Position numbers and translations under genes: made by a program. A DNA stretch of 32,000 nucleotides from Rhodobacter capsulatus SB 1003 (GTDB lineage: Bacteria > Pseudomonadota > Alphaproteobacteria > Rhodobacterales > Rhodobacteraceae): assembly GCF_000021865.1 (NCBI RefSeq), contig NC_014034.1:3030001-3062000 (forward strand), in the 5' to 3' direction. The number at the start of each line of letters is the position of its first letter. The first letter of the stretch is position 1. The notes below the pieces were generated by a model, which saw only the letters and a list, made by a program, of their open reading frames with translations, was not told the origin of the DNA and ran no database searches. Positions 10,649-30,681 of the stretch are shown in pieces.

Positions 10649-10749
10649 AGGCCCCGCTCGCAGCCGCGACAGGAGCGGCAATCCGCGCGGCCGCGGCGGA
10701 AACATCCTGTCCCCGGCCACTGGACAAGCCCCGCCATCCGTGCTTCCCT

Positions 10750-10840
10750 GCCCTTGCGACAGGGGCGTCCGGGCATCCGGGCTGAGAAGCACCCTTTGAA
10801 CCTGAACCAGATCATGCTGGCGTAGGGAGTCCGCAACCGG
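10750..10840 (+). promoter_or_regulatory. TPP (THI-box) riboswitch aptamer
   Basis: Canonical elements are present in order: GGGGCG, a CCGG-GCAT-CCGG hairpin, CTGAGA, ACCCTTTGAACCTGA, a CCAG-ATCAT-GCTGG hairpin, and CGTAGGGA. P1 closes with TTGCGAC (10754-10760) and GTCCGCAA (10829-10836). It lies directly 5' of thiM. Confidence 0.88.
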
Positions 10841-10867
10841 TGTCGGACCCAGCGTCCGCCCGGCTTC

Positions 10868-10891
10868 GGTCTTCCGCGTCATGGGAGGACC
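10868..10891 (+). promoter_or_regulatory. Shine-Dalgarno-sequestering hairpin (riboswitch expression platform)
   Basis: GGTCTTCC (10868-10875) pairs with GGAGGACC (10884-10891) through 7 Watson-Crick pairs and 1 G-U. This buries the GGGAGGA Shine-Dalgarno of the thiM ATG at 10893. The CTTCC segment could alternatively pair with the aptamer GGGAG (10825-10829). Confidence 0.45.
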
Positions 10892-10892
10892 G

Positions 10893-11699: not shown

Positions 11700-12307
11700 T
11701 CGGGCCCGTCTATGTCATCACCGACCCGGGGGCGGCGCTTTCCGTGCCCGATCAGGCCCGGGCCGCGGCCCGCGGCGGCGCCCGCGCGGTGCAGTTGCGC
11801 GACAAGACCGCCTCCGATGCAGATCTGCTGGCGCTCGCCCGGCAGCTGTTGCCCGAGATGCGGGCGCATGGGGTGAAGCTCTTCCTGAATGACCGGATCG
11901 AAGTGGCCATCGCCGCCGGGGCGGACGGGCTGCATATCGGGCAGGGCGACGGCGACCCCGTTGCCATCCGCGCCCGGATCGGGGCGGGGATGCTGCTGGG
12001 GCTCTCGATCGAGACCGAGGCGCAGGCCAGCCGCCTTCCCGGCTGCGTCGATTACATCGGCGCGGGGCCGGTGCGGGCGACGGCGACGAAACCCGATGCC
12101 GCCGCGCCCATAGGCTTTGACGGGCTGGCCCGGATCGCCCGGCTGGTCGCGGTGCCGACGCTCGCCATCGGCGGGCTGACCCGGGCCGACATTCCGGCGC
12201 TGAAAGCCGCGGGCGTGGCCGGGATGGCCGTCGTTTCCGCCGTCACCCGCGCCCCCGACGCCGAAGCCGCCTGCCGGGCACTCGTGCAGGACTGGAGGCC
12301 GCGATGA
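11696..12307 (+). CDS. thiE: Thiamine-phosphate synthase ThiE
   Basis: 203 aa. TMP-TENI family pattern (VYVITD..., VQLRDK, GADGLHIGQGD, IGAGPV..T.TK, AIGG). ATGA overlap with thiM. Confidence 0.9.
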   Translation: MIGPVYVITDPGAALSVPDQARAAARGGARAVQLRDKTASDADLLALARQLLPEMRAHGVKLFLNDRIEVAIAAGADGLHIGQGDGDPVAIRARIGAGMLLGLSIETEAQASRLPGCVDYIGAGPVRATATKPDAAAPIGFDGLARIARLVAVPTLAIGGLTRADIPALKAAGVAGMAVVSAVTRAPDAEAACRALVQDWRPR

Positions 12308-13101
12308 TCCCCAACATTCTGTCGATTGCCGGCTCCGACCCCTCGGGCGGGGCGGGGATTCAGGCCGATCTGAAAGCGATTTCCGCCAATGGCGGCTATG
12401 CGATGGCGGCGCTGACCGCGCTGACGGCGCAAAACACCCGCGGCGTCACCGCCGTCGATCCGATCCGCCCCGCGATGGTCACGGCGCAGATCGCCGCGAT
12501 CCGGGCCGATATCCGCATCGATGCGGTGAAAATCGGGATGCTGGGCGACAGCGCGATCATCGCCGCCGTGGCCGCCGCGCTCGAGGGGCTTTCGGCCCCC
12601 CTCGTCCTTGATCCGGTGATGGTGGCCAAGGGCGGCGACCGGCTTCTGGCGATGGATGCCGTCACCGCCCTGCGCCAGATCCTGCTGCCCCGCGCCGCGG
12701 TGATCACCCCGAACCTGCCCGAAGCGGCCGATCTTCTGGGCTGCGCCGTGGCGCAAGGCCGGGCCGAGATGGTCGCGCAGGCCCGCGGGCTTCGGGTGCT
12801 GGGCGCGCGGGCGGTCTATCTCAAGGGCGGGCATCTGCCCGGGGCCATCTGCCCCGATCTGCTGCTCGATGCCGCGGGCGAGGTCTGGTTCGAGGCGCCG
12901 CGGGTCGAGACGAAAAACACCCATGGCACCGGCTGCACCCTGTCTTCGGCCTGGGCGACGCAGCTGGCCCGCATCCCCGATCTGCGCCAGGCCGCCGCCG
13001 CCGCCCGCGCCTATACGCTGCGCGCCATCGCCGCGGCCGACCGGCTTTCGGTCGGACAAGGCCATGGCCCGCTGGATCATTTCTTTTCGATGAGGTCGTA
13101 A
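12304..13101 (+). CDS. thiD: Hydroxymethylpyrimidine/phosphomethylpyrimidine kinase ThiD
   Basis: 265 aa. The N-terminus is typical of ThiD (ILSIAGSDPSGGAGIQADLKA) and a GTGCTLSSA motif is present. ATGA overlap with thiE. Confidence 0.92.
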   Translation: MIPNILSIAGSDPSGGAGIQADLKAISANGGYAMAALTALTAQNTRGVTAVDPIRPAMVTAQIAAIRADIRIDAVKIGMLGDSAIIAAVAAALEGLSAPLVLDPVMVAKGGDRLLAMDAVTALRQILLPRAAVITPNLPEAADLLGCAVAQGRAEMVAQARGLRVLGARAVYLKGGHLPGAICPDLLLDAAGEVWFEAPRVETKNTHGTGCTLSSAWATQLARIPDLRQAAAAARAYTLRAIAAADRLSVGQGHGPLDHFFSMRS

Positions 13102-13102
13102 G

Positions 13103-14026
13103 ATGAAACCGCTTCTGCTTGCCCTTTTGCTGCTGGCCCCCCGGGCCGAGGCCGCCGAGAGCCTCTCGGTCATGCTCGATTGGTTCGTGAACCCCGATCA
13201 CGGGCCGATCATCGTCGCCGCCGAGCGCGGCTATTTCACCGAGGCCGGGCTGGACGTGACGCTGATCCCGCCCGCCGACCCGTCCGACCCGCCGAAGATG
13301 GCCGCCGCCGGGCAGGTCGATCTGGCGGTCAGCTACCAGCCGCAGCTGTATCTTCAGCATGCCGCGGGGCTGGGCCTGAAACGGGTCGGAACGCTGATCA
13401 ATGCGCCGCTTTACTGCGTCATGGCCGATGCGGCGGGGCCGGTGCACACCATGGCCGATCTGCGCGGTCGCAAGGTCGGCTATTCGCTGGCGGGGATCGA
13501 GGCGGCGCTGATGCAGCGGATGCTGCGCCACAACGGCGTCGATCCCGCCGAGGTCGAGACGATCAACGTCAATTTCGCGCTGACCCCCGCGGTGGCGACG
13601 GGGCAGGTCGCGGCGGTCTCGGGGGCGTTTCGGAACTTCGAGCTGCATCAGATGGCGGCCGTCGGCCATCAGGGCCGCTGCTTCCTGCCCGAGGAAAACG
13701 GCGTGCCCGCCTATGACGAGCTGATCTATCTGGCCCGCGCCGATCTGGCGCATGATGACCGCATCGCCCGGTTTCTGGCCGCGACCGGCCGCGCCGCCGC
13801 CGAGATCGCCGCCGATCCGCAGGCGGGCTGGGACACGTTCCGCGCCCATGCGGCGGAACTGGATGACCCGCTGAACGCCAAGGCCTGGCCCGACACCTGG
13901 CCGCATTTCGCCCGCGATCCGGCGGCGCTGGATACAGCGCGCTACCGCGATTTCGGCGCCTTCCTGGTGGAAACCGGGCTGATTCCGACCGCCCCGCCGG
14001 TGGAGACGATCGCGGTGGGCAAATGA
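13103..14026 (+). CDS. thiY: Periplasmic NMT1/THI5-like substrate-binding protein of a pyrimidine-precursor ABC importer (ThiY-type)
   Basis: 307 aa with a signal peptide (MKPLLLALLLLAPRAEA). The NMT1/THI5-like start (LSVMLDWFVNPDHGPIIVA.ERGYF) is present. It starts 1 nt after the thiD stop. The symbol follows the thiXYZ naming and is assigned from context. Confidence 0.75.
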   Translation: MKPLLLALLLLAPRAEAAESLSVMLDWFVNPDHGPIIVAAERGYFTEAGLDVTLIPPADPSDPPKMAAAGQVDLAVSYQPQLYLQHAAGLGLKRVGTLINAPLYCVMADAAGPVHTMADLRGRKVGYSLAGIEAALMQRMLRHNGVDPAEVETINVNFALTPAVATGQVAAVSGAFRNFELHQMAAVGHQGRCFLPEENGVPAYDELIYLARADLAHDDRIARFLAATGRAAAEIAADPQAGWDTFRAHAAELDDPLNAKAWPDTWPHFARDPAALDTARYRDFGAFLVETGLIPTAPPVETIAVGK

Positions 14027-14712
14027 CCGTTGCGATCGCGGGTCAGGTCTGGCTGGGCGGGCGCCCGCTTGTCGCCGCGCTTGATCTGCGGCTGACCCCC
14101 GGCTGGACCTGCCTTCTGGGGGCCTCCGGCGCCGGGAAGTCGACGCTTTTGCGGCTTTTGGCCGGGCTGCCCGTCGCGGCCCGGCTGGAGGGCACCCGGC
14201 AGGCGCCCGACCGCATCGGCTGGATGGCGCAGGCCGATCTGTTGCAGCCGCGGCTCTCGGTTCTGGGCAATCTGCGGCTGATGGCGCGGCTGCGCGGCGA
14301 GCCCCTGCCCCGCCCCCGGGCCGAGGCTTTGCTGGAGGCCGTCGGGCTGGCGGGCCGCGGTGCCGACCGGCCCGAGGCGCTGTCGGGCGGCGAGCGGCAG
14401 CGCCTTGCGCTGGCCCGGGTGCTGGCCGATGATGCCGCGCTTGTGGCGCTCGATGAACCCTTTTCCGCGCTTGATGTCCCCACCCGCGCCGCGATGCAGG
14501 ATCTGGCGGCGGCCTGTCTTGCGGGCAAGACCGTGGTGATGGTGACCCATGATCCGACCGAGGCTCTGCGGCTGGGCGACCGGGTGTTGCTGCTGCAAGA
14601 CGCCCTGCTGCACGAGATCCCGCCCCTGCCCGGGCCGCGTCCGGTGCCGCTTTCCGATCCGGGGCTGGCGCAGGCGGCGGCGGCGCTTCTGGCGCGGATG
14701 CGGCGGCCATGA
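14023..14712 (+). CDS. thiZ: ABC transporter ATP-binding protein (ThiZ-type)
   Basis: Walker A GASGAGKST, ABC signature LSGGERQR, Walker B LVALDEPFSALD. ATGA overlap with thiY. Confidence 0.85.
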   Translation: MTVAIAGQVWLGGRPLVAALDLRLTPGWTCLLGASGAGKSTLLRLLAGLPVAARLEGTRQAPDRIGWMAQADLLQPRLSVLGNLRLMARLRGEPLPRPRAEALLEAVGLAGRGADRPEALSGGERQRLALARVLADDAALVALDEPFSALDVPTRAAMQDLAAACLAGKTVVMVTHDPTEALRLGDRVLLLQDALLHEIPPLPGPRPVPLSDPGLAQAAAALLARMRRP

Positions 14713-15428
14713 GCGCGCGTATCTGGCCGGTTCTGGCGATTTTCGCGCTGTGGCAGGCGGTCTGCGCCGCGGCGCTGGTGCCCGCCTTCGTGCTGCCGCC
14801 GCCCTTGCGGGTGTTCGAAACGCTGTGGCACGAGCGCGGCCTGATCGGGCAGCACGCGCTGACCACCCTGGCCGAGACCGGCGCGGGGCTGGCGCTTGGC
14901 ATCGGCCTGGGCGTCACGCTGGCACTGGCGATGGCGCTGGCGCCATGGCTGCAAAGGCTGATCGGCCCGGTGCTGGCGGGGGCGCAGGCGCTGCCGGTCT
15001 TCGTGCTGGCGCCGGTGCTGGTGCTGTGGCTGGGCTATGGGCTGGGGCCCAAGGTGGCGATGGTGGCGCTGCTGGTGGTCTTTCCCGTCGCCTCGGGGCT
15101 GCATGACGGGCTTTGCGCCACGCCCGCGGCGGTGCTCGATCTGGCGCGGATCGCCCGGGCGTCACGGCTGCGCACGCTGCTCTGGCTGCGGCTGCCGCAT
15201 GCGCTGCCGCAGGGCGCCGCCGGGCTGCGCATCGCCGTCACCTATGCGCCCACCGGCGCGGTGATCGGCGAATGGGTGGGCGCGTCGCAGGGGCTCGGCT
15301 ATCTGATGCTGATGGCGAACGCCCGGATGCGCATCGATCTGATGTTCGCGGCGCTTCTGGTCATTCTGGCGCTGACGCTGCTGCTGAACCGGCTGACCGA
15401 CCGGGCGCTGGCGCGGGCGGGGCTGTGA
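14709..15428 (+). CDS. thiX: ABC transporter permease (ThiX-type, BPD_transp_1)
   Basis: 239 aa, strongly hydrophobic with about 6 TM segments. ATGA overlap with thiZ. It is the last gene of the riboswitch-controlled operon. Confidence 0.8.
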   Translation: MSARIWPVLAIFALWQAVCAAALVPAFVLPPPLRVFETLWHERGLIGQHALTTLAETGAGLALGIGLGVTLALAMALAPWLQRLIGPVLAGAQALPVFVLAPVLVLWLGYGLGPKVAMVALLVVFPVASGLHDGLCATPAAVLDLARIARASRLRTLLWLRLPHALPQGAAGLRIAVTYAPTGAVIGEWVGASQGLGYLMLMANARMRIDLMFAALLVILALTLLLNRLTDRALARAGL

Positions 15429-17020: not shown

Positions 17021-20000
17021 ATGTCCCTGACTGCCACGCCGCTCATCGCCCTGCTTGCCGCCTGCCCCGGCGCCGCTTTCGTCGTCTCGCGTCCGGGGCG
17101 GATTCTGGCCGCCAACGCCGAGGCCGACCGGGTCTTCGGCACGGCCCGGCCCGCCGTCGCGGGGACCGGGCTCTCCGGCCTGCGCCTGGCCGAGGTGATC
17201 CCCTGCGCGCTGGGACACCGGATCATGGCGGCGCTGCGACGCGACGGGGTCCGGGAGGCGACGCGGTTCCGGCTGGCGCTCGACCGGGTCGAGGGCAGCC
17301 CCCATGTCGTCGAGACGCTGGTCTGGCCCGCCACCGCCGAAACGACCGACGACACCGCGGCGCCTTGCGGGTCGGCGGGGCCGCTCTGGATCGTGCTGGT
17401 GCTTGACGTCGGCGCACAGGCCGCGGCGACGGGGGGCGGGCGGATCCTCTGCACCGGCCTTGCCGCGCTGCGCGCCACCGAGGAAGCCCGCCGCAAGGCC
17501 CGGGAAAGCGCGGAAATCCTGCGCATCTCGACCGAAAACAGCGATCTGGCGCCCTGGGTCCACCATCCCGGCCATGGCAGCGGCGAGCTGAGCCCGCATC
17601 TGGCGACGATGCTCGGCCGTCCGGCCAATCCGCCGCTGGATCTGGCCGCTCTGGCCGCGCTGATCCACCCCGAGGACAGCCTCCGGATGCGGCGGGCCTT
17701 CGTCGCGCTGACACGTGGGCGCAGCGACCGGTTCAGCCAGGACATGCGGCTGCGCCGCGCCGATGGCCAATGGGCCTGGTTCACCGCGCGCGGCTACCGG
17801 ATGCCGCAGACGACGCCCTGCCAGCCGGTGACCCTGTGCGGCAGCCTGACCGACATCAGCGCCCGCAAGGCCGACGAGGCGCTGGTGGCCCGGACCCTTG
17901 CCGAAGCGCTGCACGCGCGCAGCCGCGCCCAGCAACGCGAGGAAATGCTGCGCACCTCCGGGCTTTGCGCCGGGATCGGGCATTTCTGCGCCAGCCCGCT
18001 GCAGGGCGAGGCCTGGACCCCCGACGAGACCTATCGGCTGTTCGGCTTCGAGCCGGGCGAATTCGCCGCCACCGATGCGGGCTGGCGCAGCCTGATCCAT
18101 CCCGAGGATCTGCCCGCGGCGATCGCCGCGATGGAGGATCTGAAGGCCGGTAGCACGATGCTTTACGACCATGTCCACCGGCGCCAGCACAAGGACGGCA
18201 GCTATCACTGGTATCGCGCCGTCGCCCGCCGGGTCGAGCGCAGCGATCTGGGCCTGCCGCCGCTGGTCGCCGGGGCGCTGATCTGCGTCGATCAGGCCAA
18301 GGAAACCGAGATCCGGCTGGCCGATGCCGCCGATGCGGCGCGGCTGGCGCGCGAACGGCTCGACACCCTTGCCGACAATGCGCCGGGCGCGCTGTTCGAA
18401 TGCCGGATGGCGGCCTCGGGGCAGATGATGCTGCCCTATTTCAGCGCCCGGCTGCCCGATCTGGCCGGGGTCTCCGGCTCCGAGATCCTGTGCGACGCCT
18501 GCGTCGTCTTCCGCCATGTGCCGCCGCAGCAGATGACACGGCTGTTGCGCCGCGCGATGACCGCCCTGCGCAGCGGCGCCGCGATCGAGATGCGGCTGTC
18601 GGTCCGCCATCCGCTGCGCGGCCTGCGCTGGGTCAGCGTCGCCGCCGCGCCCTTCCGCCGCGAGGATGCCTCGGTGTGCTGGTTCGGCCAGATCCTCGAC
18701 GTCACCGAGAATGTCGAAACCGAAGCCCGGGCGGCGCTGGCCGCCGAGGCGGCGCTGAAAGCCCATGCCCGGCTCGCCTCGATCGCCGCGGTCGCCCCGG
18801 CCGGGCTTTACGAGATCGAGCGGTTCCCCGAGGGGGCGGCCACGATCCCCTATGCCAGCCCGCATTTCCGCAATCTGCTGGGCCTTGATCACCGCGACAC
18901 GATCCGGCTGGGCGAGGGCGGCGGCGGCGCGCAGGAAGTCAAGCTGGACGACCTGCCCGCCTTCCTGACCCGGGATGCGGCCTCTCCGGTGCCGCCCGGC
19001 GGCGTGGCGCGGCGGTTCTGCATCCAGCATCCGCTGCGCGGCGCGGTCTGGCTGTCGAATTCGGCGACGGCCAAGCCGCAGCCCGATGGCACCGTGGTCT
19101 GGACCGGGGCGCTGCACGATGTCACCGGCGATGTCCGCCGCGAGGCCGAGCTGCATGCCGCCTATCGTCTGGCCGAGGACCGGCGGCAGGAAAACGAATG
19201 GCAGGCGCTGCATGACGGGCTGACCGGGCTGCCGAACCGGCGCTATTACGATCAGGTGCTGGCGAACCGGATCGAACAGGCGAAGGCGGGGGGCAAGTCG
19301 GGCTGCACGCTGATCCGCATCGATCTGGACCATTTCAAGCATGTGAACGACACGCTGGGCCATGATGCGGGCGATCTGGTGCTGTGCCGCGTCGCCGAGG
19401 TGCTGCGCGCCAGCCTGCGTCAGGGCGATTTCGCCGCCCGTCTTGGCGGCGACGAATTCTCGGTGATCCTGGCGCGCGGGCTGGGCCGCGAGGATGCCGG
19501 GGCGCTGATCCGGCGGGTTCAGGACCGGCTCGTCGAGCCGCTGATGTTCGCCGGGCGGCAATGCCGTTTCGGCGCCTCTTTCGGCATCGCCGAGGCCGAG
19601 GATCTGGCCAGCACCGGCCCCGAGATCCAGTTCTTCGCCGATGCCGCGCTGTATCGGGCCAAGGAAACCGGCCGCAACCGGATGGAATTCTTCACCCCCG
19701 AGCTGCATCAGAACCTGCGCCGCGACCGCGAACTGGCCGCCGAGATCCAGGAGGGGCTCGACCGCGACGAATTCGAACCGTTCTTTCAGGCGCAGGTTTC
19801 GGCCCGCGATCACCGTCTGACCGGGGTCGAGACGCTGCTGCGCTGGCGCCATCCCGAACGCGGCCTGCTGACGCCCCACGCCTTCATGCATGTGGCCGAA
19901 CAGCTGCGTCTGGTGCCCGAGATCGACCGCGTGGTGATGGAACGGTCGCGCGAATCGCTGGCCTTCTGGCGCGAGCGCGGGCTGATCGTGCCGAAGATCA

Positions 20001-20497
20001 GCTTCAACGTCTCCTCGGGGCGGATGCACGATCCCGATGTGGTGAAGGCGGCGCAGACGATCGCACGCGGCGAGACGCGGGTGACCTTCGAGCTGCTCGA
20101 ATCGATCCTGGTCGAGGATGAAAGCGATCTCTTCCGCTTCCATCTCGACGCGATCCGCGAAGCGGGCATCGACATCGAGATCGACGATTTCGGCTCGGGC
20201 CATGCCTCGATCATCGGCTTGATGCAGATCGGCCCCTCGGCGCTGAAGATCGACCGCCGCATCGTCGAGCCGCTGGGCCGCGATCCGCAGGCCCGCCATC
20301 TGGTGCGCGCGATCATCGAAATCGCCGAGACGCTGGGCACCGCCACCGTGGCCGAGGGCGTCGAAACCGAGGCCCAGGCCGAGATCCTGCGCGATCTGGG
20401 CTGCGACGTGCTGCAGGGCTTCCTGTTCTCGGTGCCACTCTCGGCGCCCGATTTCGTCGCGTTCTGGCAGCGCCACCGCAAGCGGCTGCCCGCCTGA
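17021..20497 (+). CDS. Multi-PAS/PAC diguanylate cyclase / phosphodiesterase (GGDEF-EAL)
   Basis: 1158 aa with four to five PAS/PAC-like units. GGDEF lies at 19445-19459, with an RxxD I-site (RQGD, 19418-19429) at the canonical spacing. The EAL domain has ETL at 19829-19837 plus DDFGSG, KIDRR, AEGVET and QGF. Confidence 0.93.
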   Translation: MSLTATPLIALLAACPGAAFVVSRPGRILAANAEADRVFGTARPAVAGTGLSGLRLAEVIPCALGHRIMAALRRDGVREATRFRLALDRVEGSPHVVETLVWPATAETTDDTAAPCGSAGPLWIVLVLDVGAQAAATGGGRILCTGLAALRATEEARRKARESAEILRISTENSDLAPWVHHPGHGSGELSPHLATMLGRPANPPLDLAALAALIHPEDSLRMRRAFVALTRGRSDRFSQDMRLRRADGQWAWFTARGYRMPQTTPCQPVTLCGSLTDISARKADEALVARTLAEALHARSRAQQREEMLRTSGLCAGIGHFCASPLQGEAWTPDETYRLFGFEPGEFAATDAGWRSLIHPEDLPAAIAAMEDLKAGSTMLYDHVHRRQHKDGSYHWYRAVARRVERSDLGLPPLVAGALICVDQAKETEIRLADAADAARLARERLDTLADNAPGALFECRMAASGQMMLPYFSARLPDLAGVSGSEILCDACVVFRHVPPQQMTRLLRRAMTALRSGAAIEMRLSVRHPLRGLRWVSVAAAPFRREDASVCWFGQILDVTENVETEARAALAAEAALKAHARLASIAAVAPAGLYEIERFPEGAATIPYASPHFRNLLGLDHRDTIRLGEGGGGAQEVKLDDLPAFLTRDAASPVPPGGVARRFCIQHPLRGAVWLSNSATAKPQPDGTVVWTGALHDVTGDVRREAELHAAYRLAEDRRQENEWQALHDGLTGLPNRRYYDQVLANRIEQAKAGGKSGCTLIRIDLDHFKHVNDTLGHDAGDLVLCRVAEVLRASLRQGDFAARLGGDEFSVILARGLGREDAGALIRRVQDRLVEPLMFAGRQCRFGASFGIAEAEDLASTGPEIQFFADAALYRAKETGRNRMEFFTPELHQNLRRDRELAAEIQEGLDRDEFEPFFQAQVSARDHRLTGVETLLRWRHPERGLLTPHAFMHVAEQLRLVPEIDRVVMERSRESLAFWRERGLIVPKISFNVSSGRMHDPDVVKAAQTIARGETRVTFELLESILVEDESDLFRFHLDAIREAGIDIEIDDFGSGHASIIGLMQIGPSALKIDRRIVEPLGRDPQARHLVRAIIEIAETLGTATVAEGVETEAQAEILRDLGCDVLQGFLFSVPLSAPDFVAFWQRHRKRLPA

Positions 20498-20504: not shown

Positions 20505-20852
20505 TCAGACGGGCTCGTCGCGCCCGCGTCCGAAGCCTGCGGGGAAGGTCAGCACATTGCCGCGCGACGGCGGATGGGCCTCGGCATGCCAGGCTTCCTG
20601 CGCGCGCAAGAGCCGGGTTTCGACCTCGTCCAGCCCCTGACTGTGGCAATAGCGGGCCAGCTCGTCGATCACCTCGCCCAGCCAGCGGTCCTGCTGATCC
20701 TCTGCCAGCACGTGACTGCGCGGCCCGCATTGCGCCACCAGCGCCACCCGCGCCGCCTGCAGCCCGGCCGCGGTCGATCGCAGCGACTGGATTTCGCAAT
20801 GCGCGATCAGATCGTCCAGAATCGGCAACAGCCACCCATGATCTTCAAACAT
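20505..20852 (-). CDS. Hypothetical small cytoplasmic protein (115 aa)
   Basis: The third codon position is strongly G/C, as expected for real coding sequence in this genome. I place the start at MFEDHGWLLPILDD (ATG 20850-20852), with GGAAGG about 13 nt upstream. The track ORF extends to 20912. I recognise no family. Confidence 0.5.
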   Translation of the reverse strand: MFEDHGWLLPILDDLIAHCEIQSLRSTAAGLQAARVALVAQCGPRSHVLAEDQQDRWLGEVIDELARYCHSQGLDEVETRLLRAQEAWHAEAHPPSRGNVLTFPAGFGRGRDEPV

Positions 20853-20984
20853 CGGGACAAAACACCTTCCACCATCTGCCCGCAGCTTCCCCCGGTTTCG
20901 CGCTTCGGGCAACCCTGAACCGACACGCCGGTCGATGCGACGGCCGCGCCACCGCCTTGGGGAAGTGGTTGAAATGCTGCGATG

Positions 20985-21100
20985 TTTGGCGGCACGGATA
21001 ATGAATTTACAGAATTGACCACCAAAGTGATAACATCTTTACAGTTTTCCCTTTTTATTTTAAGGGTTTACATGCGCCATCACGTTCTGTTTACAATATC
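20985..21100 (+). promoter_or_regulatory. AT-rich promoter island of acs with four TTTACA motifs
   Basis: This is the only markedly AT-rich stretch in the window. TTTACA occurs at 21006-21011, 21038-21043, 21067-21072 and 21090-21095. A candidate sigma-70 pair is TTACAT (21068-21073), an 18-nt spacer and TACAAT (21092-21097), about 75 nt before the acs ATG. Confidence 0.45.
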
Positions 21101-21173
21101 CCCGAGGAACGGGGCCAGGGCTTCGCCCGGCGCCGACGGCGACAGCCGCATGCCGTCAGAGAGGGAGGGACAG

Positions 21174-23144
<1,971 letters not shown>

Positions 23145-23378: not shown

Positions 23379-23687
23379 ATGCAAGACACGATGCTGGAAC
23401 GCATCGCCAGGAGCCCGGCCTACCACGCGCTGAAGACAAAGCGCTTGCGGTTCGGCTGGCTGCTCACCATCGCGATGCTGCTGGTCTATTACGGCTTCAT
23501 CACCGTCATCGCCTTTCGCAAGGACCTTCTGGCCGTGCCGATGGGCGAGGGGGTGATGACCTGGGGGATCCCGGTCGGCTTCGGGGTGATCCTGTTCACC
23601 ATCGTGGTGACGGCGATCTACGTCTTCCGCGCCAACAGCGACTATGACGAGCTGACCGCCCAGGTGAAGCGCGAGGTGCTGAAATGA
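23379..23687 (+). CDS. yjcH: DUF485 inner-membrane protein (YjcH-like), partner of ActP
   Basis: 102 aa with two TM helices. Shine-Dalgarno GAGGAGGA lies 7 nt upstream. ATGA overlap with actP, the same arrangement as E. coli acs-yjcH-actP. Confidence 0.85.
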
Positions 23688-25420
23688 GCCCGGTCACGAC
23701 CTTCACCCGCCTTGCGGCGGTCTCGGCGCTGAGCCTGACGCCCGGCCTTGCCCTTGCGGCGGGCGCGATCGAGGGGGCGGTGCAAAAGCAGCCCACGAAC
23801 TGGACCGCGATCGCGATGTTCGGCTTTTTCGTGGTGGCGACGCTGTTCATCACGAAATGGGCGGCCGGGCGGACGAAATCGGCGGCCGATTTCTACACCG
23901 CGGGCGGCGGCATCACCGGCTTTCAGAACGGGCTGGCGATCGCGGGCGATTACATGTCGGCGGCGTCCTTTCTGGGGATTTCGGCGGCGGTGATGCTGCA
24001 GGGCTATGACGGGCTGATCTATTCGATCGGCTTTCTGGTCGGCTGGCCGATCCTGACCTTCCTGATGGCCGAGCGGCTGCGCAACCTTGGCAAGTTCACC
24101 TTCGCCGATGTGGCGGCCTTCCCGTTCGCGCAGACGCCGGTGCGGGTCTTTGCGGCGATGTCGACGCTGGTCGTCGTGGCCTTTTACCTGATCGCCCAGA
24201 TGGTGGGCGCGGGGCAGCTGATCAAGCTGCTGTTCGGGCTGGAATATCTTTATGCGGTGATCGTCGTCGGCATCCTGATGATGGTCTATGTGCTGTTTGG
24301 CGGCATGACCGCGACGACCTGGGTGCAGATCATCAAGGCCTGTCTGCTGCTGGGCGGGGCCAGCTTCATGGCGCTGATGGTGATGGTGCATTACGGCTTC
24401 AGCCTGGAAAGCCTGTTTGCGGACTCGGTCAAGGTGAAGACCGATCTGGCGCTGGCGGCGGGCAAGACCCCCGAGGAGGCGGCGGCTGCGGGGATCTCGA
24501 TCATGGGGCCGGGCACCTTCGTGAAAGACCCGATCTCGGCGATTTCCTTCGGCATGGCGCTGATGTTCGGCACCGCCGGTCTGCCGCATATCCTGATGCG
24601 CTTCTTCACCGTGCCTTCGGCCAAGGAAGCGCGCAAGTCGGTGATGTGGGCGACGGTCTGGATCGGCTATTTCTACATGCTGACCTTCATCATCGGCTTT
24701 GGCGCCATCGTCTATGTCCTGACCAACCCGGGTCTGGTCAGCTATGATGCCAAGGGCGCGCTGACGCTGGTGGGCGGCAACAACATGGCGGCGATCCATC
24801 TGGCGCAGGCGGTGGGCGGCAACATCTTCCTCGGCTTCATCTCGGCGGTGGCCTTTGCCACGATCCTGGCCGTGGTCGCCGGTCTGACGCTCTCGGGCGC
24901 CTCGGCGGTGTCGCATGACCTTTATTCGACCGTGTTCAAGAACGGCAAGGCCGACAGCGCCTCGGAGCTGCGGGTCTCGCGCATCACCACGATCTGCCTT
25001 GGCATCGTCGCGGTGGTTCTGGGTCTGGCGTTTGAAAAGCAGAACATCGCCTTCATGGTGTCGCTGGCCTTTGCCATCGCCGCTTCGGCGAACTTCCCGG
25101 TGCTCTTCATGTCGCTTCTGTGGAAGGGCATGACGACGCGCGGCGCGGTGATCGGCGGTTCCCTCGGGCTGATCAGCTCGGTGGCGCTGACCGTGATCTC
25201 GCCCTCGGTCTGGGAGGCCACGCTCGGCTTTGAAAAGGGCTCGGCGCCCTTCCCCTATACCTCGCCCGCGCTCTTCTCGATGGTGCTGGGCTTTGCGGGG
25301 ATCTGGCTCTTTTCGATCACCGACAAGAGCCGGCGCGGCGATCAGGACCGGGACGGCTATCTGGCGCAGGAGATCCGTTCGGAAACCGGCATCGGCGCCG
25401 CCGAAGCCTCGGCGCATTGA
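23684..25420 (+). CDS. actP: Cation/acetate symporter ActP (SSS family)
   Basis: 578 aa, collinear with E. coli ActP from the N-terminus (..[16 protein letters not shown]...[32 protein letters not shown]..). Confidence 0.93.
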
Positions 25421-25428: not shown

Positions 25429-25450
25429 CGGGCGGGGTCCTCCCCGCCCG
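25429..25450 (+). terminator. Strong hairpin 9 nt after the actP stop
   Basis: CGGGCGGGG (25429-25437), loop TCCT, CCCCGCCCG (25442-25450): a perfect 9-bp stem. It is followed only by TT, so termination may be partial. Confidence 0.4.
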
Positions 25451-25490: not shown

Positions 25491-27317
25491 ATGGAACCCG
25501 ACCGTCAGGCCGTCCTTGCCTTTCTGGAAACCGTCCATCCCTATGATACCCTGCCGCGTGACGAGCTGGCCGAGGTGGCCCGTTCCTTTCGCCGCATGGA
25601 ATTTTGCGCCCAGGCGCTGATCTATGTGCATCAGACGCCCCTGGGCGGGCTTTACCTGATCAAGCAGGGCGCGGTGGAAATCACCGACGGCAATGGCGGG
25701 CTGGTCTCGCTTCTGGGTCCGCGCAATTCCTTTGGCGAGCGCGGTCTTCTGCGCGACGGGCTGGCCGCGACCCAGGCGCGGGCGACGGCGCAGACGGTCT
25801 GCCTTGTGCTGCCCACCCCCAGCTTCAAGCGGCTGATCGAGACCTATCCGGCGTTCGAGCGCTTCTTCAACAGGAAGCGCGGCGAGAAGGTCTCGACCGA
25901 GATCGCGACGCAGAAAGTGGCCGATCTGATCGCGCGCAAGCCGCTTGCCTGCGCGCCCGACACCCCCGCGATCGCGGCGGCGCAGCAGATGCGCGCGGCG
26001 CATGTTTCCTCGCTCGGCGTCGTCGCGGCGGACGGGACGCTTTTGGGCATCGTCACCCAGCGCGATCTGTCGAACAAGATCCTGGCCGAGGGGCAAGCGC
26101 CCGAAACCCCGGTGGCGGCGGTGATGACGGCGGATCCGGTCAGCCTGCCGCCCACCGCGCTCGGCTCCGACATCCTGCATATCATGCTGGAGCGGCGCAT
26201 CGGCCATCTGCCGATCACCGAGGCGGGGCGTTTCGTCGGCATGATCACCCAGACCGATCTGACGCGGTTTCAGGCGGTCTCGGCGGCGGTGCTCATTCGC
26301 GACGTGGTCTCGGCCGAGACCCTGGCCGAGATGGCCGCGGTCACCGCGCGGATCCCGCAGCTGCTGGTGCAGCTTGTCGGCGCGCATCACGCCCATGACG
26401 TGGTGACGCGGCTGATCACCGACATCGCCGATGCGGTGACGCGCAGGCTTCTGGTGATGGCCGAACGCGATCTCGGGCCGCCGCCGGTGCCCTATCTCTG
26501 GCTCGCCTGCGGCTCTCAGGGGCGGCAGGAACAGACTGGCGTGTCCGATCAGGACAATTGCCTGATTTTGGATGATGCGGCAAAGCCCGAAGACATGGAG
26601 TATTTCCGCGCTTTGGCGAAGATCGTCTGCGACGGGCTTGACGCCTGCGGTTACGTGCATTGCCCGGGCGAGATGATGGCCACGGCCGCGCGCTGGTGCC
26701 AGCCGCTCGGGGTCTGGCGGCGCTATTTCCACGACTGGATCGACACGCCGAACCCCGAGGCGCAGATGCTGGCCTCGGTGATGTTCGATCTGCGCCCGAT
26801 CGGCGGCACTGGCGCCGATCTCTTCACCGCGCTGCAGGAAGAAACCCTGCGGCTGGCGGCGCAAAGCCCGATCTTCATCGCGCATATGCTGGGCAATGCG
26901 CTCAAGCACACGCCGCCTCTGGGCCTCTTGCGCGGCTTTGCCACGATCCGCTCGGGCGAGCACCGCAACCACATCGATCTGAAGATGAACGGGGTGGTGC
27001 CGGTGATCGATCTGGCGCGGGTGCAGGCGCTGCGCGGGCGGCTTGGTCTCGCCAATACCCGCGCCCGGCTGAAGGCCGCCGAGGAGGCCGGGACGATCGC
27101 CCCCGGCGAGGCGCGCGATCTGATCGAGGCCTATGACCTGATCGCGACGACGCGGCTGGAAAACCAGGCCCGGCTGATCCGCTCCGGGCGGGCGCCGGAC
27201 AATTTCCTCGCGCCCTCGGATCTGAGCGATTTCGAACGCGCGCATCTGCGCGACGCTTTCGTGGTGGTGCGCACGATGCAATCGGCGCTGGGTCATGGCA
27301 AGGCCGTGGTGGGCTGA
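25491..27317 (+). CDS. cNMP-binding / tandem CBS / DUF294-type putative nucleotidyltransferase
   Basis: The product is 608 aa when started at MEPDRQAVLAF (ATG 25491), with AGGAGAG 4 nt upstream. Domains seen: a CAP-type effector domain (SFGERGLL...ARATAQ), two CBS repeats (..SSLGVVAADGTLLGIVTQRDL.. and ..IGHLPITEAGRFVGMITQTDL..), a nucleotidyltransferase core (LACGSQGRQEQTGVSDQDN) and a helical DUF294_C-like tail. The track start at 25230 overlaps actP. Confidence 0.85.
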   Translation: MEPDRQAVLAFLETVHPYDTLPRDELAEVARSFRRMEFCAQALIYVHQTPLGGLYLIKQGAVEITDGNGGLVSLLGPRNSFGERGLLRDGLAATQARATAQTVCLVLPTPSFKRLIETYPAFERFFNRKRGEKVSTEIATQKVADLIARKPLACAPDTPAIAAAQQMRAAHVSSLGVVAADGTLLGIVTQRDLSNKILAEGQAPETPVAAVMTADPVSLPPTALGSDILHIMLERRIGHLPITEAGRFVGMITQTDLTRFQAVSAAVLIRDVVSAETLAEMAAVTARIPQLLVQLVGAHHAHDVVTRLITDIADAVTRRLLVMAERDLGPPPVPYLWLACGSQGRQEQTGVSDQDNCLILDDAAKPEDMEYFRALAKIVCDGLDACGYVHCPGEMMATAARWCQPLGVWRRYFHDWIDTPNPEAQMLASVMFDLRPIGGTGADLFTALQEETLRLAAQSPIFIAHMLGNALKHTPPLGLLRGFATIRSGEHRNHIDLKMNGVVPVIDLARVQALRGRLGLANTRARLKAAEEAGTIAPGEARDLIEAYDLIATTRLENQARLIRSGRAPDNFLAPSDLSDFERAHLRDAFVVVRTMQSALGHGKAVVG

Positions 27318-27372
27318 CATGCAGCGGGCGGAGAGGCGGCGGGCAGAGATGGCCCCCGCGCGGGAGGACGGA

Positions 27373-27768
27373 ATGACCGGGGAAAGCGGCGGCAGGCCGC
27401 GCGTGCTGATCGTCGAGGACGAGGACAACATCGCCATTGCGCTTGATTATCTTCTGGGCCGCGAGGGGCTGGATCATGCGCGGCTGGCCACCGGGCTGGG
27501 CGCGGTCGAGCGCATCCGCGCCGAGCGCCCCGATCTGGTGCTGCTCGACGTGATGCTGCCCGAGGTCTCGGGCTACGAGATCTGCCAGCAGGTCCGGGCC
27601 GATGGCGCGCTGGCCGGGGTGCGGATCGTGATGATGACGGCGCGCGGCTCGGCGCTGGAGCGGCGCAAGGCGCTGGCGCTTGGCGCCGACGGGTTCATCG
27701 CCAAACCCTTCGAGCTGAAGGAGCTGCGCGACGAATTGCACCGGCTGCTGGACCCGGAGGGGGCGTGA
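27373..27768 (+). CDS. Stand-alone CheY-like receiver protein
   Basis: 131 aa when started at MTGESGG (ATG 27373), with GGGAGGA 4 nt upstream. The phospho-pocket is complete: VEDED, LVLLDVMLP, MMTARG and IAKPF. There is no output domain. Its stop overlaps the start of the next gene (GTGATG at 27765-27770). Confidence 0.85.
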   Translation: MTGESGGRPRVLIVEDEDNIAIALDYLLGREGLDHARLATGLGAVERIRAERPDLVLLDVMLPEVSGYEICQQVRADGALAGVRIVMMTARGSALERRKALALGADGFIAKPFELKELRDELHRLLDPEGA

Positions 27769-29882
27769 TGGGGCTGGCCCGGCTCAGCCTGCGCCTCCGG
27801 ATCTTCCTGTTCTTCGCCGCGCTGGCGATGGGCAATCTTGCGGCGCTGGTCGCGGGGCTGGTCTTCGGCTTTCACAAGCTCGCCCGGCCCGAGGCGCTTT
27901 CGGGCTTCGTGATCGGCGGCACCGTGGCGGGGCTGGTCATCCTGGGCCTGATCGGGGTGGTCTGGGCGCTGTTCGACGCCAATCTGGCGCGGCCGATCGA
28001 GCGGCTGGCGGGCTCGATCCGGGCGCGCACCCAGACCGCGGTCGACAGCGCGCTGGATGAAAGCGCGGGGCGCTATCTGGGCGATCTGGCCCCGGCGGCG
28101 GCGGCGATCGCGCAGCATCTGAACGAGACCCGCTCGGCGCTGACCGAGGCGGTGCAGCGCGAGACCACCCGGCTTGCCCGCGAAAAGGACCGGCTGGAGA
28201 CGCTGCTGTCGGACGTGCCGGTGGGGGTGCTTTTGTGCACCGCCGATCATGCCCTGGTCTTTTACAACGGTCAGGCGGTCGATCTGCTGGGCGGGGCGCA
28301 TGCGCCGGGGCTCGACCGGCGGGTCTTCGACTATCTGCACCCGGCGCCGATCCGCCATGCCCATGCGCGGCTTCTGGCGACGGCCGATCCCGATGCCGCC
28401 TCGGATCTTCTGTGCGCGACGGTGGCCGATGGCCGCACGCTCGCCGCGCGGATGCGGCTGATCTCGGAGGGGGAGGATCATCAGGTGCGGCGCCTGGCGG
28501 GCTATGTGCTGACCTTGCGCGATGTCTCGGCCGATCTGCGCGCCCATGCCGGGCGCGAGGCGCTGATGGACGAGCTGTTCGACCGCATCCGCCGTCCGGC
28601 CGCGGCGCTGCAATCGCTGATGGGCGTGCTGATCGCCGAGGACGGGCCCGCCGATCCGCAGGCCCGCGCGCAGCTGCGCGAGGCCGCCCGGGCCGAGGCG
28701 GGCCATCTTGCGCAGGCGATCCACAGCCTGCACGACCGCCACGAGGCGATGCGGGCCGACTGGTGGCCGCTTGCGATGATCCGCGCCTCGGATTTCGGCG
28801 CCGCCGTGCAGGCCCGCGTCGCGGCCGAGGGGGCGGGCGATCTGCTGCCGGTGACCGCGGCCCTGCTGCTGCGGCTGGAGGGCTTCGAGATGGTGGCGCT
28901 GATCGCGCATCTGGTGCGCCGTCTGGGCCCGGGCCGGGCCGAGAAGCGGCTGGAGGTGCTTGAAGACGGCGCGGGGGCGCTGATCGCGCTCGAATGGCGC
29001 GGCGCGGCGGTGGCGATTGCCGATCTGGAGCTGTGGCTCTCCGAGCCGCTGGATGTGGGCCAGGCCGAGGTGACCGGGCGGCGGGTGCTCTCGGTCCATG
29101 CGACCGATCTGTGGCCCGAGCGGCTGCACGAGGGGCGGCACCGGCTCTGCCTGCCGCTGCGCGAGGCACGCCGGATCGGCCCGGATCCCCATCCGGTGCC
29201 CCGTCCGGTGCCGCGCCAGGTGGTCTATGACTTTGATCTGCTGGGGCGGGGCGGCGAAAGCGCGCTGGCCGAAACCCCGCTCGACAAGCTGACCTTCGTC
29301 GTCTTCGACACCGAGACGACGGGGCTCTTTCCCACCGGCGGCGACGAGATCGTGCAGATCGCGGCGGTGCGGATCGTCAACGGGCGGCGGGTGGCGGGCG
29401 AGGTCTTTGACACGCTCGTGAACCCGGGGCGGCCGATCCCGGCGGCCTCGACGGCGGTTCACGGCATCACCGAGGCGATGGTGGCAACCGCGCCCGCGAT
29501 CGCCGAGGTCGGGCGGCGGTTCCACAAATTCGCCGAGGGCGCGGTGCTGGTCGCCCATAACGCGCCCTTCGATCTGGAATTCCTGCGCCGCAAGGAATTG
29601 CTGATCGGCAAGAATTTCGACAATCCGGTGCTCGACACGGTGCTTTTGTCGGCGGTGGTCTTCGGCGCCGCCGAGGGCCACAGCCTGGACGCGCTGACGC
29701 ATCGGCTGGGCATCACCATCCCCGAGGAAGCCCGCCACACCGCGCTTGGCGACACGGTCGCCACGGCCGAGGCCTTCCTGCGCCTGCTGCCCGCCCTCAA
29801 GGCCCGCGGCCTGACCACCTTCGGCGCCGTCCTCACCGAAGTCCGAAAACACCGCCGCCTCATGCGCGACATGAACGCCTGA
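27765..29882 (+). CDS. Membrane HAMP-PAS pseudo-histidine-kinase fused to a DEDDh (DnaQ/RNase T-like) 3'-5' exonuclease
   Basis: 705 aa. Two TM helices are separated by an 11-aa loop, followed by a HAMP-like linker and a PAS domain. The DHp-like helix reads ELFDRIRRPAAAL, with Asp273 (28581-28583) where SHELRTPL has the phospho-His. The CA-like domain shows no N, G1 or G2 boxes. The C-terminal exonuclease carries ExoI FVVFDTETTG, ExoII LVAHNAPFDLEFL and ExoIII HTALGD. The start is either GTG 27765 or ATG 27768. Confidence 0.85.
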   Translation: MMGLARLSLRLRIFLFFAALAMGNLAALVAGLVFGFHKLARPEALSGFVIGGTVAGLVILGLIGVVWALFDANLARPIERLAGSIRARTQTAVDSALDESAGRYLGDLAPAAAAIAQHLNETRSALTEAVQRETTRLAREKDRLETLLSDVPVGVLLCTADHALVFYNGQAVDLLGGAHAPGLDRRVFDYLHPAPIRHAHARLLATADPDAASDLLCATVADGRTLAARMRLISEGEDHQVRRLAGYVLTLRDVSADLRAHAGREALMDELFDRIRRPAAALQSLMGVLIAEDGPADPQARAQLREAARAEAGHLAQAIHSLHDRHEAMRADWWPLAMIRASDFGAAVQARVAAEGAGDLLPVTAALLLRLEGFEMVALIAHLVRRLGPGRAEKRLEVLEDGAGALIALEWRGAAVAIADLELWLSEPLDVGQAEVTGRRVLSVHATDLWPERLHEGRHRLCLPLREARRIGPDPHPVPRPVPRQVVYDFDLLGRGGESALAETPLDKLTFVVFDTETTGLFPTGGDEIVQIAAVRIVNGRRVAGEVFDTLVNPGRPIPAASTAVHGITEAMVATAPAIAEVGRRFHKFAEGAVLVAHNAPFDLEFLRRKELLIGKNFDNPVLDTVLLSAVVFGAAEGHSLDALTHRLGITIPEEARHTALGDTVATAEAFLRLLPALKARGLTTFGAVLTEVRKHRRLMRDMNA

Positions 29883-29892: not shown

Positions 29893-30681
29893 TCAGAAGG
29901 CGGTCAGCCCCCGGGCGCGAAACACCGCCCGCGCCGCCTCGGTCGCTTCGGGCGCGGGCGTCGGGGTGTCGGCCAGCGCATAGGGATGGCCAAGCATCGC
30001 CCATTTCGAGGCGCCAAGCTGATGGAAGGGCAGCACCTCGACCAGCTCGACCGCGGGACCCAGCCGCGCGACGTGATCGGCCATGCGGGCGATATCCTCG
30101 GGCGCGTCGGTCCAGCCGGGCACCAGCACGTAGCGAATGCGCATCTTTTTCCCCAGCCGCACCATCCGGTCGGCGCAATCGAGCGTCGGCTGCAAGGGCT
30201 GCGCCGTCAGCGCCAGATGCCGCGCCGGGTCGATGTGCTTGATGTCGAGCATCACGAGGTCGATCGGATCGAACCAGTCGTCGGTCACGCGATCATGCAG
30301 ATGGCCCTGCGTATCCAGCGCGACATGCAGCCCGAAGCGGTCCTTCAGTGCCCGGGCGGTGGCGTGGACAAAGGCCGCCTGCATCATCGGCTCGCCGCCC
30401 GAAAAGGTCACCCCGCCCGCGAATTTGAGGAAACTGGCCAAGGGCGCAACCTCGGCCACGAGATCCTCGACCGCCACCCGGCGGCCTGCATGCAGTTTCC
30501 AGGTGTCGGGGTTGTGGCAGTAAAGGCAGCGGAACTGGCAGCCCGACAGGAAAAACACGAAGCGCATCCCCGGCCCGTCGACCGCCGCCCCGGATTCGAG
30601 CGAATGCAGGAAACCGTGACAGGCGGCCTCGTGCGGATCGCAGACAGCGTCAAACCCGGGATGCGGCGTCAGGATCGTCAT
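29893..30681 (-). CDS. pflA: Pyruvate formate-lyase activating enzyme (radical SAM)
   Basis: 262 aa. CQFRCLYCHNPDTW radical-SAM cluster motif and a GVTFSGGEP motif. It lies immediately downstream of pflB. Confidence 0.92.
   Translation of the reverse strand: MTILTPHPGFDAVCDPHEAACHGFLHSLESGAAVDGPGMRFVFFLSGCQFRCLYCHNPDTWKLHAGRRVAVEDLVAEVAPLASFLKFAGGVTFSGGEPMMQAAFVHATARALKDRFGLHVALDTQGHLHDRVTDDWFDPIDLVMLDIKHIDPARHLALTAQPLQPTLDCADRMVRLGKKMRIRYVLVPGWTDAPEDIARMADHVARLGPAVELVEVLPFHQLGASKWAMLGHPYALADTPTPAPEATEAARAVFRARGLTAF

Follow-up and report, generated by a model that had tools for sequence, protein, structure and literature searches.

Three genes beside the acetate uptake genes of Rhodobacter capsulatus: a candidate nucleotidyl writer/eraser pair with a receiver and a pseudokinase-exonuclease fusion

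The genes that follow actP in Rhodobacter capsulatus SB 1003 raise the question of why an enzyme predicted to add nucleotides and one predicted to remove them should be encoded almost side by side, with a receiver between them, next to the machinery for acetate activation and uptake. The window, i.e. the whole stretch of 32,000 nucleotides that was analysed (contig NC_014034.1, positions 3,030,001 to 3,062,000), has a G+C content of about 68%. A preliminary description of this DNA had recognised three co-directional genes after acs-DUF485-actP, and the open reading frames are indeed there on the plus strand: P1 (25491..27317), a signal-gated DUF294 nucleotidyltransferase (NTase) of 608 amino acids found with Pfam; P2 (27373..27768), a single-domain receiver of 131 amino acids; and P3 (27768..29882), a fusion of a membrane pseudo-histidine-kinase to a DEDDh exonuclease, with 704 amino acids from the ATG at 27768, recognised by AlphaFold2, Foldseek, profile comparison with the PDB, and Pfam. 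Our preferred answer, to which we give a probability of about 0.45, is that they encode a regulator of monocarboxylate uptake and activation in which a nucleotidyl writer and eraser antagonise each other, and that in Rhodobacter a DivL-like pseudokinase has been added to read the receiver. The core pair of DUF294 protein and exonuclease is already known but uncharacterised. The form with receiver and pseudokinase-exonuclease appears to be undescribed in the literature searched and to be widespread, as an exhaustive search gave at least 783 relatives of the P3 N-terminus.

A first step is to see whether both enzymes look intact. P1 exceeds the gathering scores of the two Pfam models that define DUF294/COG2905: DUF294 (PF03445) covers the NTase core at 26349-26759 with E 5e-47 and 159.6 bits against a cut-off of 21, and DUF294_C (PF10335) covers the helical domain at 26868-27293 with E 2e-43 and 148 bits against a cut-off of 22.5. 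The Pol-beta motif G341-S342...D353-x-D355, assigned by reading the sequence, and the third carboxylate D433 are invariant in an alignment of 15 sequences (A2). In front of the core there are two regions that could serve as gates, a CNB-like domain (25596-25847, Pfam cNMP_binding E 2.7e-13) and a CBS pair (about 25917-26270, two Pfam CBS matches, E 7e-24), the latter similar to AcuB-type nucleotide and Ap4A binders. The cNMP-binding domain of the preliminary description is thus present, but a cyclic nucleotide is doubtful as its ligand, and so is gating by one, because the Arg of the phosphate-binding cassette is absent; the 'PRAAT' of yeast PKA-R aligns with 'LAATQ', which puts Ala in the place of Arg. 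The best PDB match of this domain is Cmr, a CRP-family protein. A fold search with the P1 model, in which DUF294_C is poorly modelled (predicted local distance difference test, pLDDT, <50), recovered the CBS and CNB domains only, so that structure does not tell whether the NTase is closer to protein-modifying or RNA-modifying enzymes, and the PDB profile search gave no solved DUF294 relative among the matches listed. R. viridis has a second DUF294 paralogue, about 80% identical (L003, 10001-11821), which lies 3' of HlyD/MacB-type efflux genes with neither exonuclease nor receiver, and R. capsulatus genomes apparently carry two DUF294 paralogues as well (P0134 vs P0123).

The partner enzyme forms the end of P3 (residues 510-700, 29292..29864). 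Pfam RNase_T (PF00929) matches residues 512-671 with E 3.5e-40 and 138.7 bits, and the catalytic residues D515, E517, D603, H658 and D663, which make up the motifs Exo I (DxE), Exo II (D) and Exo III (Hx4D), are invariant both in 31 close sequences and in 67/67 members of a diverse set of representatives with 27-53% identity. The intact DEDDh exonuclease that had been read from the sequence is therefore well founded. Foldseek places this part of the model with PolC, epsilon, DinG and RNase T, with a TM-score of 0.8 to Pol III epsilon, and the domain is 29-39% identical to the exonuclease domains of PolC and epsilon. Nevertheless, P3 is not a polymerase subunit, since it stays below the DnaQ equivalog cut-offs of NCBIfam (113.4 vs 222.7 for TIGR01406 and 109.8 vs 196 for NF004316). 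Between the disordered linker and the exonuclease lies an invariant 'VVYDFDLL' (29220-29243, P3 residues 486-493), which is also found in shorter forms of the protein such as that of Shinella.

A second step concerns what stands in front of the exonuclease. Profile searches agreed with the domain calls of the preliminary description for all three proteins except at the P3 N-terminus, where the first 500 residues had no Pfam match at E <= 0.01. Scanning the N-terminal segment alone gave a sub-threshold PAS match (E ~0.002), N-terminal segments matched neither Pfam HisKA nor HATPase_c even at E 10, and HAMP was likewise unmatched; distant P3 homologues do pass Pfam PAS. As Pfam offered only a sub-threshold PAS, structure prediction and family profiles were needed to recognise the kinase-like nature of this region. 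In the AlphaFold2 model (mean pLDDT 72.7) two transmembrane (TM) helices are followed by HAMP-like helices, PAS, a DHp hairpin, an alpha/beta domain similar to CA (pLDDT 85-90), a disordered linker and the exonuclease. The TM helices and HAMP-like signalling helices span residues 9 to ~149 (27789..28211), with the TM helices modelled at 9-39 and 42-90 and joined by a loop of 2 to ~10 residues. The cytoplasmic PAS occupies residues 153-253 (28221..28523), as indicated by sub-threshold Pfam PAS_8/PAS_4 matches, the WalK PAS profile and the model, and the dead kinase core, delimited by HMMER alignments and the model, consists of the DHp hairpin at 255-332 and the CA-like domain at 337-470 (28527..29174). 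Foldseek relates the front part of P3 to WalK, VicK, YF1, ThkA, HK853 and NifL, with E from 1e-13 to 1e-7, and the family profile run against the PDB matches VicK (E 7.6e-17) and the PAS of WalK (1.5e-4). The 2-TM/HAMP/PAS kinase-shaped protein of the preliminary description is thus borne out in its kinase shape by model, Foldseek and profiles, and less so in its HAMP, for which the profile matches are weak (Tsr 4.5e-4, Af1503 about 0.008).

The kinase shape does not imply kinase function. P3 has the DHp-CA fold of a sensor histidine kinase but lacks the phospho-His and the ATP-binding boxes. HMMER aligns the phospho-His of VicK (SHELRTP) with D273 of P3 (FDRVRRP); this position is D in >=90% of the 31 close sequences and E (37) or D (16) in 53/67 of the diverse members. 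In the alignment with ThkA the N-box Asn is missing, 'WxG' replaces DxGxG and GxGLG is not present, so that P3 has none of the N, G1 and G2 boxes. Because the His is replaced by Asp or Glu and the ATP boxes are missing, P3 is best described as a pseudokinase fused to an active-looking exonuclease, and its 'sensor kinase' is predicted to be unable to phosphorylate anything. Cys158 and Cys217 in the PAS are each >=90% conserved. A heme-binding PAS was considered and set aside: the sole match in a single-sequence PDB search was marginal (FixL, E 0.096), and the position of the FixL heme His is H or Y in the family.

P2 is a canonical CheY-like receiver (Pfam Response_reg E 1.3e-25), in agreement with its earlier recognition as a single-domain receiver, and E15, D16, D59, T89 and K111 are invariant in 80 orthologues. 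Its stop codon overlaps the ATG of P3 at 27768 as TGATG; from this overlap, together with the agreement with the N-termini of homologues, ATG 27768 is the likeliest start of P3 and the GTG at 27765 proposed previously is less likely. P2 and P3 are accordingly arranged as a pair that is predicted to be translationally coupled. The receiver accompanies ~85/86 of the long P3 forms versus 0/5 of the forms without the DHp/CA insert. As to a source of phosphate, a kinase was not found within 12 kb of receiver and P3 in the Paracoccus denitrificans locus, while a genuine HisKA-HATPase kinase and a second receiver adjoin the long form in L087/88. The sole genuine kinase in the window is the hybrid kinase at 8040-10727, which most plausibly partners an OmpR-type regulator rather than P2. 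No CrbS-like gene was found in the window.

A third step is to see whether the genes belong together. The genome scan used the DUF294 alignment on one genome per species, and its best 80 loci are all from Paracoccaceae; flanking genes were counted by tblastn with the window proteins, each denominator being the number of loci with enough flanking sequence. The receiver lies downstream of DUF294 in 78/79 loci and P3, with both N-terminus and exonuclease, in 69/71. Upstream there are DUF4212 and an SSF symporter in 61/63 loci and acs in 56/57, the latter followed by adenylate kinase (adk) in 56/57, which makes acs-adk-DUF4212-SSF the usual order in relatives. Moreover, 77 of 79 loci have a 2-TM protein of ~176 amino acids between DUF294 and receiver. 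The exceptions are the window and R. viridis (L001), which have DUF485-ActP in place of adk-DUF4212-SSF and lack the 2-TM protein. In the window and in its relatives alike, the NTase and DEDDh genes are co-directional, not more than two genes apart, and beside an SSF symporter with its small subunit, as befits an accessory pair. The 2-TM protein (~165-193 amino acids, with two N-terminal TM helices and no Pfam family) also occurs in Shinella, Skermanella and Ruegeria; examples are L008 11840-12376, L081 8839-9369, L082 8851-9432 and L092 13811-14308.

This census also corrects one reading of the neighbourhood. The position of the module before pflAB had been taken as a clue to coupling with C2 or acetyl-phosphate status, but pflA follows the module in only 1/67 loci, so the adjacency is incidental and lineage-specific, and coupling to pflAB or acetyl phosphate read from the neighbourhood is rejected. 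The partners to which the module is stably linked are SSF-type carboxylate symporters and acs, not pflAB. The three-gene unit itself is real and selected, beyond chance: gene order is kept in 80 species genomes, and in comparison with R. viridis, the closest relative, the ratio of non-synonymous to synonymous substitution (dN/dS) is 0.16-0.17 for P1, P2, PAS and exonuclease and 0.35 for the dead kinase core, with a dS that is probably compressed by codon bias. On these figures the dead kinase core is relaxed yet still constrained.

Beyond the best 80 loci the census consists of plasmid records and single look-ups, in which the module was also found at 30-33% identity. The linkage of NTase and exonuclease across genomes, which the preliminary description had made the measure of its idea, thus extends from the Paracoccaceae to Rhizobiaceae, Roseobacteraceae, Vibrio and Bacteroidota. 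Relatives of P3 come as long forms of ~700 amino acids and as short forms of ~470-560, in which TM-HAMP-PAS is fused straight to the exonuclease. Shinella (561 amino acids) and Ruegeria TM1040 have short forms, and L085, L094 and L095 have the order DUF4212-SSF-DUF294-2TM-short exonuclease, all five of them with the receiver absent. In L089, L090, L087/88, Paracoccus denitrificans and the P0320 neighbourhood a receiver precedes the long form, and in L090 the transporter-DUF294-2TM block is divergent from the receiver-P3 block. The proposal that the receiver and the kinase-like N-terminus elaborate a simpler pair is thus upheld, as 5/5 short forms, in which the DHp/CA insert is missing, have no receiver. 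In Vibrio penaeicida DUF294 overlaps a 238-amino-acid exonuclease, and in a Hymenobacter plasmid (Bacteroidota; L084 6283-6996) a 237-amino-acid exonuclease with a C-terminal hydrophobic tail overlaps DUF294 among glycoside-hydrolase (GH43/arabinose) genes, from which it follows that the pair is not confined to acetate loci. Membrane location recurs, through two N-terminal TM helices in alphaproteobacteria and the C-terminal tail in Hymenobacter. The partners of DUF294 differ in DEDDh subtype, with varying best NCBIfam models, which indicates that the coupling is to an activity and not to one orthologue. Two intact enzymes of opposite chemistry are therefore kept together across phyla despite a change of exonuclease subtype. 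A metagenomic sequence, P0320, encodes in a single chain of 1154 amino acids the sensor/pseudokinase, a partial RNase_T, CBS, DUF294 and DUF294_C, with a receiver before it; it may be a natural fusion or an artefact of assembly or deletion, and counts as weak evidence only.

Co-regulation and phenotypes come from the literature on Pseudomonas and Shewanella. The gammaproteobacterial arrangement DUF485-actP-DUF294-exonuclease, mentioned in the preliminary description, exists as PA3232-PA3235 (PMC9765439, PMC9927547), whereas its statement that none of the genes has an assigned role was too strong, since the pair is directly targeted by CrbS/R (MxtR/ErdR) and has phenotypes on pyruvate and propionate (PMC9927547; bioRxiv 10.64898/2026.09.07.749794). 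In P. putida, PP_0353-PP_0354 form an operon whose dependence on MxtR/ErdR is among the strongest observed, the PP_0354 promoter is bound by ErdR, and deletion of either gene leaves growth on 20 mM acetate unaffected; on pyruvate, the exonuclease mutant phenocopies the loss of actP and the NTase mutant (Delta-PP_0354) does not (PMC9927547; bioRxiv 10.64898/2026.09.07.749794). PA3232-PA3235 are co-induced ~16-fold on propionate (PMC9765439), and a mutant of Pflu5625 in P. fluorescens had no phenotype (PMC5715377). In Shewanella amazonensis and Pseudomonas stutzeri, a neighbour described as an 'RNase T domain protein' is cofit with a DUF4212-SSF symporter, and Price et al. guessed that the symporter needs it for its expression (bioRxiv 10.1101/072470). 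The literature search gave neither a biochemical study of the pair nor a description of the kinase-like exonuclease fusion.

The writer/eraser idea, already present in the preliminary description, is plausible in the light of these genetics: the asymmetry on pyruvate, where the exonuclease mutant has a phenotype and the NTase mutant has none, is the pattern expected if the writer acts negatively and the eraser positively. In the mechanism that we propose, the three genes would be the Rhodobacter version of a widespread accessory module that travels with SSF symporters (ActP/DUF485 or SSF/DUF4212) and acs. The DUF294 NTase would respond to its CBS pair, probably as a sensor of adenine nucleotides or energy charge, and also to its CNB-like domain, which probably binds something other than a cyclic nucleotide. 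The NTase would attach a nucleotide to a target in the uptake/activation pathway and so turn that target down, and the DEDDh exonuclease would hydrolyse this phosphodiester and turn the pathway on again. According to sequence and model, the exonuclease is held at the membrane by the two TM helices, behind HAMP-like helices, PAS and dead kinase core. Like DivL or NifL, the dead kinase would not phosphorylate the receiver; it would dock the co-translated receiver on its DHp and read its phosphorylation state, which we infer to be set elsewhere, by an orphan kinase or by acetyl phosphate. Receiver docking and PAS together would then set exonuclease activity. A protein target would agree with the kinship of DUF294 to GlnD/GlnE (PMC3710099) and with a membrane-located exonuclease, an RNA 3' end with the substrates known for DEDDh enzymes, and a small nucleotide signal with the same genetics.

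A number of points weigh against this reading. We know of no DEDDh enzyme that removes a nucleotide from a protein, and the enzymatic activity of the module members is predicted from their sequences. The census counts are phylogenetically non-independent. ActP is only 27-31% identical to the SSF symporters of relatives, so that the module stays constant while the transporter type varies, which argues against a transporter-specific protein contact. In the Skermanella rosea plasmid a HAMP methyl-accepting chemotaxis protein (L082 9590-11647) occupies the exonuclease slot after DUF4212-SSF-DUF294-2TM, i.e. a chemoreceptor stands in place of the exonuclease, and L086 has a long form with the receiver absent. 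Growth on propionate is reduced in both P. putida deletions and actP-I is irrelevant to it (bioRxiv 10.64898/2026.09.07.749794), so that the pair is not simply a regulator of ActP, nor is the relation of its two genes one of pure antagonism; the model of a negative writer and a positive eraser is incomplete in this respect. Finally, the text of Price et al. is ambiguous on which of the two genes was cofit (bioRxiv 10.1101/072470).

In one alternative the two enzymes would act on RNA, much as tRNA ends are turned over by the CCA-adding enzyme together with RNase T. The NTase would extend an RNA, such as the symporter/acs operon mRNA or a small RNA, at its 3' end by non-templated nucleotides, and the exonuclease would trim them, thus setting transcript stability or transporter expression. 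Pol-beta NTases do include poly(A) polymerases and CCA-adding enzymes, the P3 exonuclease is closest to PolC, epsilon, DinG and RNase T, all of them 3'-5' exonucleases of nucleic acids, and Henriquez et al. speculated on mRNA degradation (PMC9927547). A GC hairpin 3' of actP (25429..25450, plus strand) is also in its favour; it lies in the 70-nt spacer between actP and P1, that between P1 and P2 being 55 nt, and has a perfect stem of 9 bp, the loop UCCU, no U tract and a z-score of only -1.8 in RNA folding. After the actP stop it could possibly be a partial terminator that attenuates read-through into the module, or a stabiliser; the terminator scan did not flag it, and in that scan promoter and terminator counts were no higher than chance. 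Against RNA as the substrate, DUF294 and DUF294_C group with the protein-modifying GlnD/GlnE and not with poly(A) polymerases and CCA enzymes (PMC3710099; Pfam names), domain scans detected no RNA-binding domain in P1, P2 or P3, Rfam found no conserved RNA at the module locus, and the membrane tether of the exonuclease is left unexplained. We consider this alternative unlikely.

A further alternative, which we find slightly more doubtful, is the turnover of a second messenger: the NTase would synthesise an inhibitor of uptake or activation, either a small oligonucleotide, linear or cyclic, or an NpnN-type compound, and the exonuclease would degrade it, much as oligoribonuclease (Orn), another DEDDh enzyme that acts on dinucleotides, degrades pGpG. 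The genetic logic would be the same as for a writer and an eraser, with loss of the degrader harmful and loss of the synthase silent on pyruvate (PMC9927547), both enzymes stand behind sensory domains as cyclases and phosphodiesterases do, and the resemblance of the CBS pair to AcuB-type and Ap4A binders is in keeping with it. No receptor or effector is apparent at the locus, however, DUF294 is unrelated to known CD-NTase or GGDEF synthases, and the exonuclease of P3 is nearer to proofreading domains than to Orn. A role in DNA proofreading or repair, with NTase and receiver as unrelated neighbours, is very improbable: the source annotations do use the name 'DNA polymerase III subunit epsilon' and the identity to PolC and epsilon domains speaks for it, but the scores far under the DnaQ cut-offs, the membrane anchor behind sensory domains, the invariable linkage to DUF294, receiver and carboxylate symporter, and the carbon-source phenotypes of relatives (PMC9927547) all point elsewhere. 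A defence system was likewise considered and rejected, as PADLOC matched nothing beyond the generic DEDDh domain.

Returning to the writer/eraser regulator, we think that there is much to gain from its study. The DUF294-exonuclease pair belongs to the regulons for acetate, pyruvate and propionate uptake in Pseudomonas, Vibrio, Shewanella, rhizobia, Rhodobacterales and even Bacteroidota. Solving the system would define the function of the large DUF family COG2905 and explain a post-transcriptional tuning of short-chain carboxylate uptake. The Rhodobacter form offers handles, namely a phosphorylatable receiver, a PAS and a dead-kinase scaffold, by which regulation of the exonuclease can be tested in vitro, and the genetic asymmetry in P. 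putida yields a clear epistasis prediction. The most far-reaching version, which we consider unlikely, is that the DEDDh enzyme erases a nucleotidylylation mark, or a dedicated nucleotide signal, written by DUF294 on the carboxylate machinery, and that in Paracoccaceae this eraser is the output of a two-component-like pathway in which a dead kinase senses its own receiver, possibly charged by acetyl phosphate. If true, it would be a new class of output for two-component signalling and a new class of DEDDh chemistry or substrate.

The remaining features of the window can be dealt with briefly. On the plus strand the order is PAS-GGDEF-EAL protein (17021-20497), a 114-amino-acid open reading frame just 5' of acs (20574-20918, unmatched in Pfam and NCBIfam and of uncertain status as a gene), acs, DUF485, actP and the three genes of the module, after which come the convergent pflA and pflB. 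The acetyl-CoA synthetase gene acs (20982..23144; Pfam ACAS_N, AMP-binding and AMP-binding_C) probably has its real start downstream of 20982; the yjcH-type DUF485 gene (23379..23687; Pfam DUF485 E 1.9e-30) encodes the small membrane protein that partners ActP, and actP (23684..25420; Pfam SSF E 2e-111) encodes an SSF-family monocarboxylate symporter. Outside the module on the minus strand lies pflA (29893..30681; Pfam Radical_SAM/Fer4_12). Farther upstream, at 971-10727, there is a respiration cluster of the dimethyl sulfoxide/trimethylamine N-oxide (DMSO/TMAO) type, which we take to be similar to the R. capsulatus dor locus. It comprises genes for a MoaA-like radical SAM protein (971-1984, minus), a molybdopterin oxidoreductase (2640-5111, minus), a chaperone of the nitrate-reductase delta type (5108-6388, minus), a NapC/NirT cytochrome (5734-7008, minus), the OmpR-type regulator (7104-7805, plus) and the TorS/DorS-like hybrid HisKA-HATPase-REC-Hpt kinase (8040-10727, minus). 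An ordinary thiamine pyrophosphate (TPP) riboswitch (RF00059, 63.5 bits, 10751-10846, plus) precedes thiM-, thiE- and thiD-like, NMT1/THI5-like and ABC transporter genes (10881-15428).

Among known systems, the nearest are PP_0354/PP_0353 of P. putida, PA3233/PA3232 of P. aeruginosa and Pflu5625 of P. fluorescens, which belong to the CrbS/R (MxtR/ErdR) acetate regulon and have the cNMP-CBS-DUF294 NTase architecture with a DEDDh exonuclease immediately 3' (PMC9927547, PMC5715377, PMC9765439, bioRxiv 10.64898/2026.09.07.749794). PA3233/PA3232 also adjoin yjcH-actP, and the pair is linked to acs-dependent use of short-chain carboxylates. The Pseudomonas exonuclease is, however, small and soluble, whereas P3 is a membrane protein of 704 amino acids with HAMP-like helices, PAS and dead kinase and with a receiver before it. 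The exonuclease subtype differs too, the Vibrio partner, as gammaproteobacterial example, being PRK09146-like and the alphaproteobacterial domains PolC/PRK07883-like. Sama_1522-1525 and Psest_0346-0349 have the order small subunit, SSF symporter, DUF294, exonuclease, as in 61/63 Paracoccaceae loci, and fitness data link their accessory gene to transporter function; the window differs from them in having DUF485-ActP for DUF4212-SSF, and it is without the ~176-amino-acid 2-TM protein that 77/79 relatives carry.

For P1, GlnD and GlnE, which uridylylate PII and adenylylate glutamine synthetase, are the working analogy, in that their Pol-beta-type NTase core likewise precedes a helical domain of the KNTase_C/HEPN clan (PMC3710099) and a sensory domain gates reversible nucleotidylylation. 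GlnD and GlnE can themselves remove the nucleotide, through an HD or another NTase domain, whereas P1 lacks such an activity and is constantly partnered by a separate DEDDh enzyme. With DnaQ/PolC, RNase T and oligoribonuclease, P3 has in common the fold and all five catalytic residues, but it is membrane-tethered, sensor-coupled and below the polymerase equivalog cut-offs. As regards the front of P3, the closest parallels are DivL of Caulobacter and NifL, the latter among the Foldseek matches, both of which have the histidine-kinase fold but signal without phosphotransfer, since the PAS-DHp-CA fold is kept in P3 and the phospho-His is lost. DivL has Tyr at the phospho-His position and reads the phosphorylated single-domain receiver DivK, a pairing matched here by receiver and dead kinase, where binding of the receiver is suggested by co-occurrence only. 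P3 departs from DivL and NifL in that its output is a fused exonuclease, a conserved Asp or Glu stands at the His position and the ATP boxes are gone.

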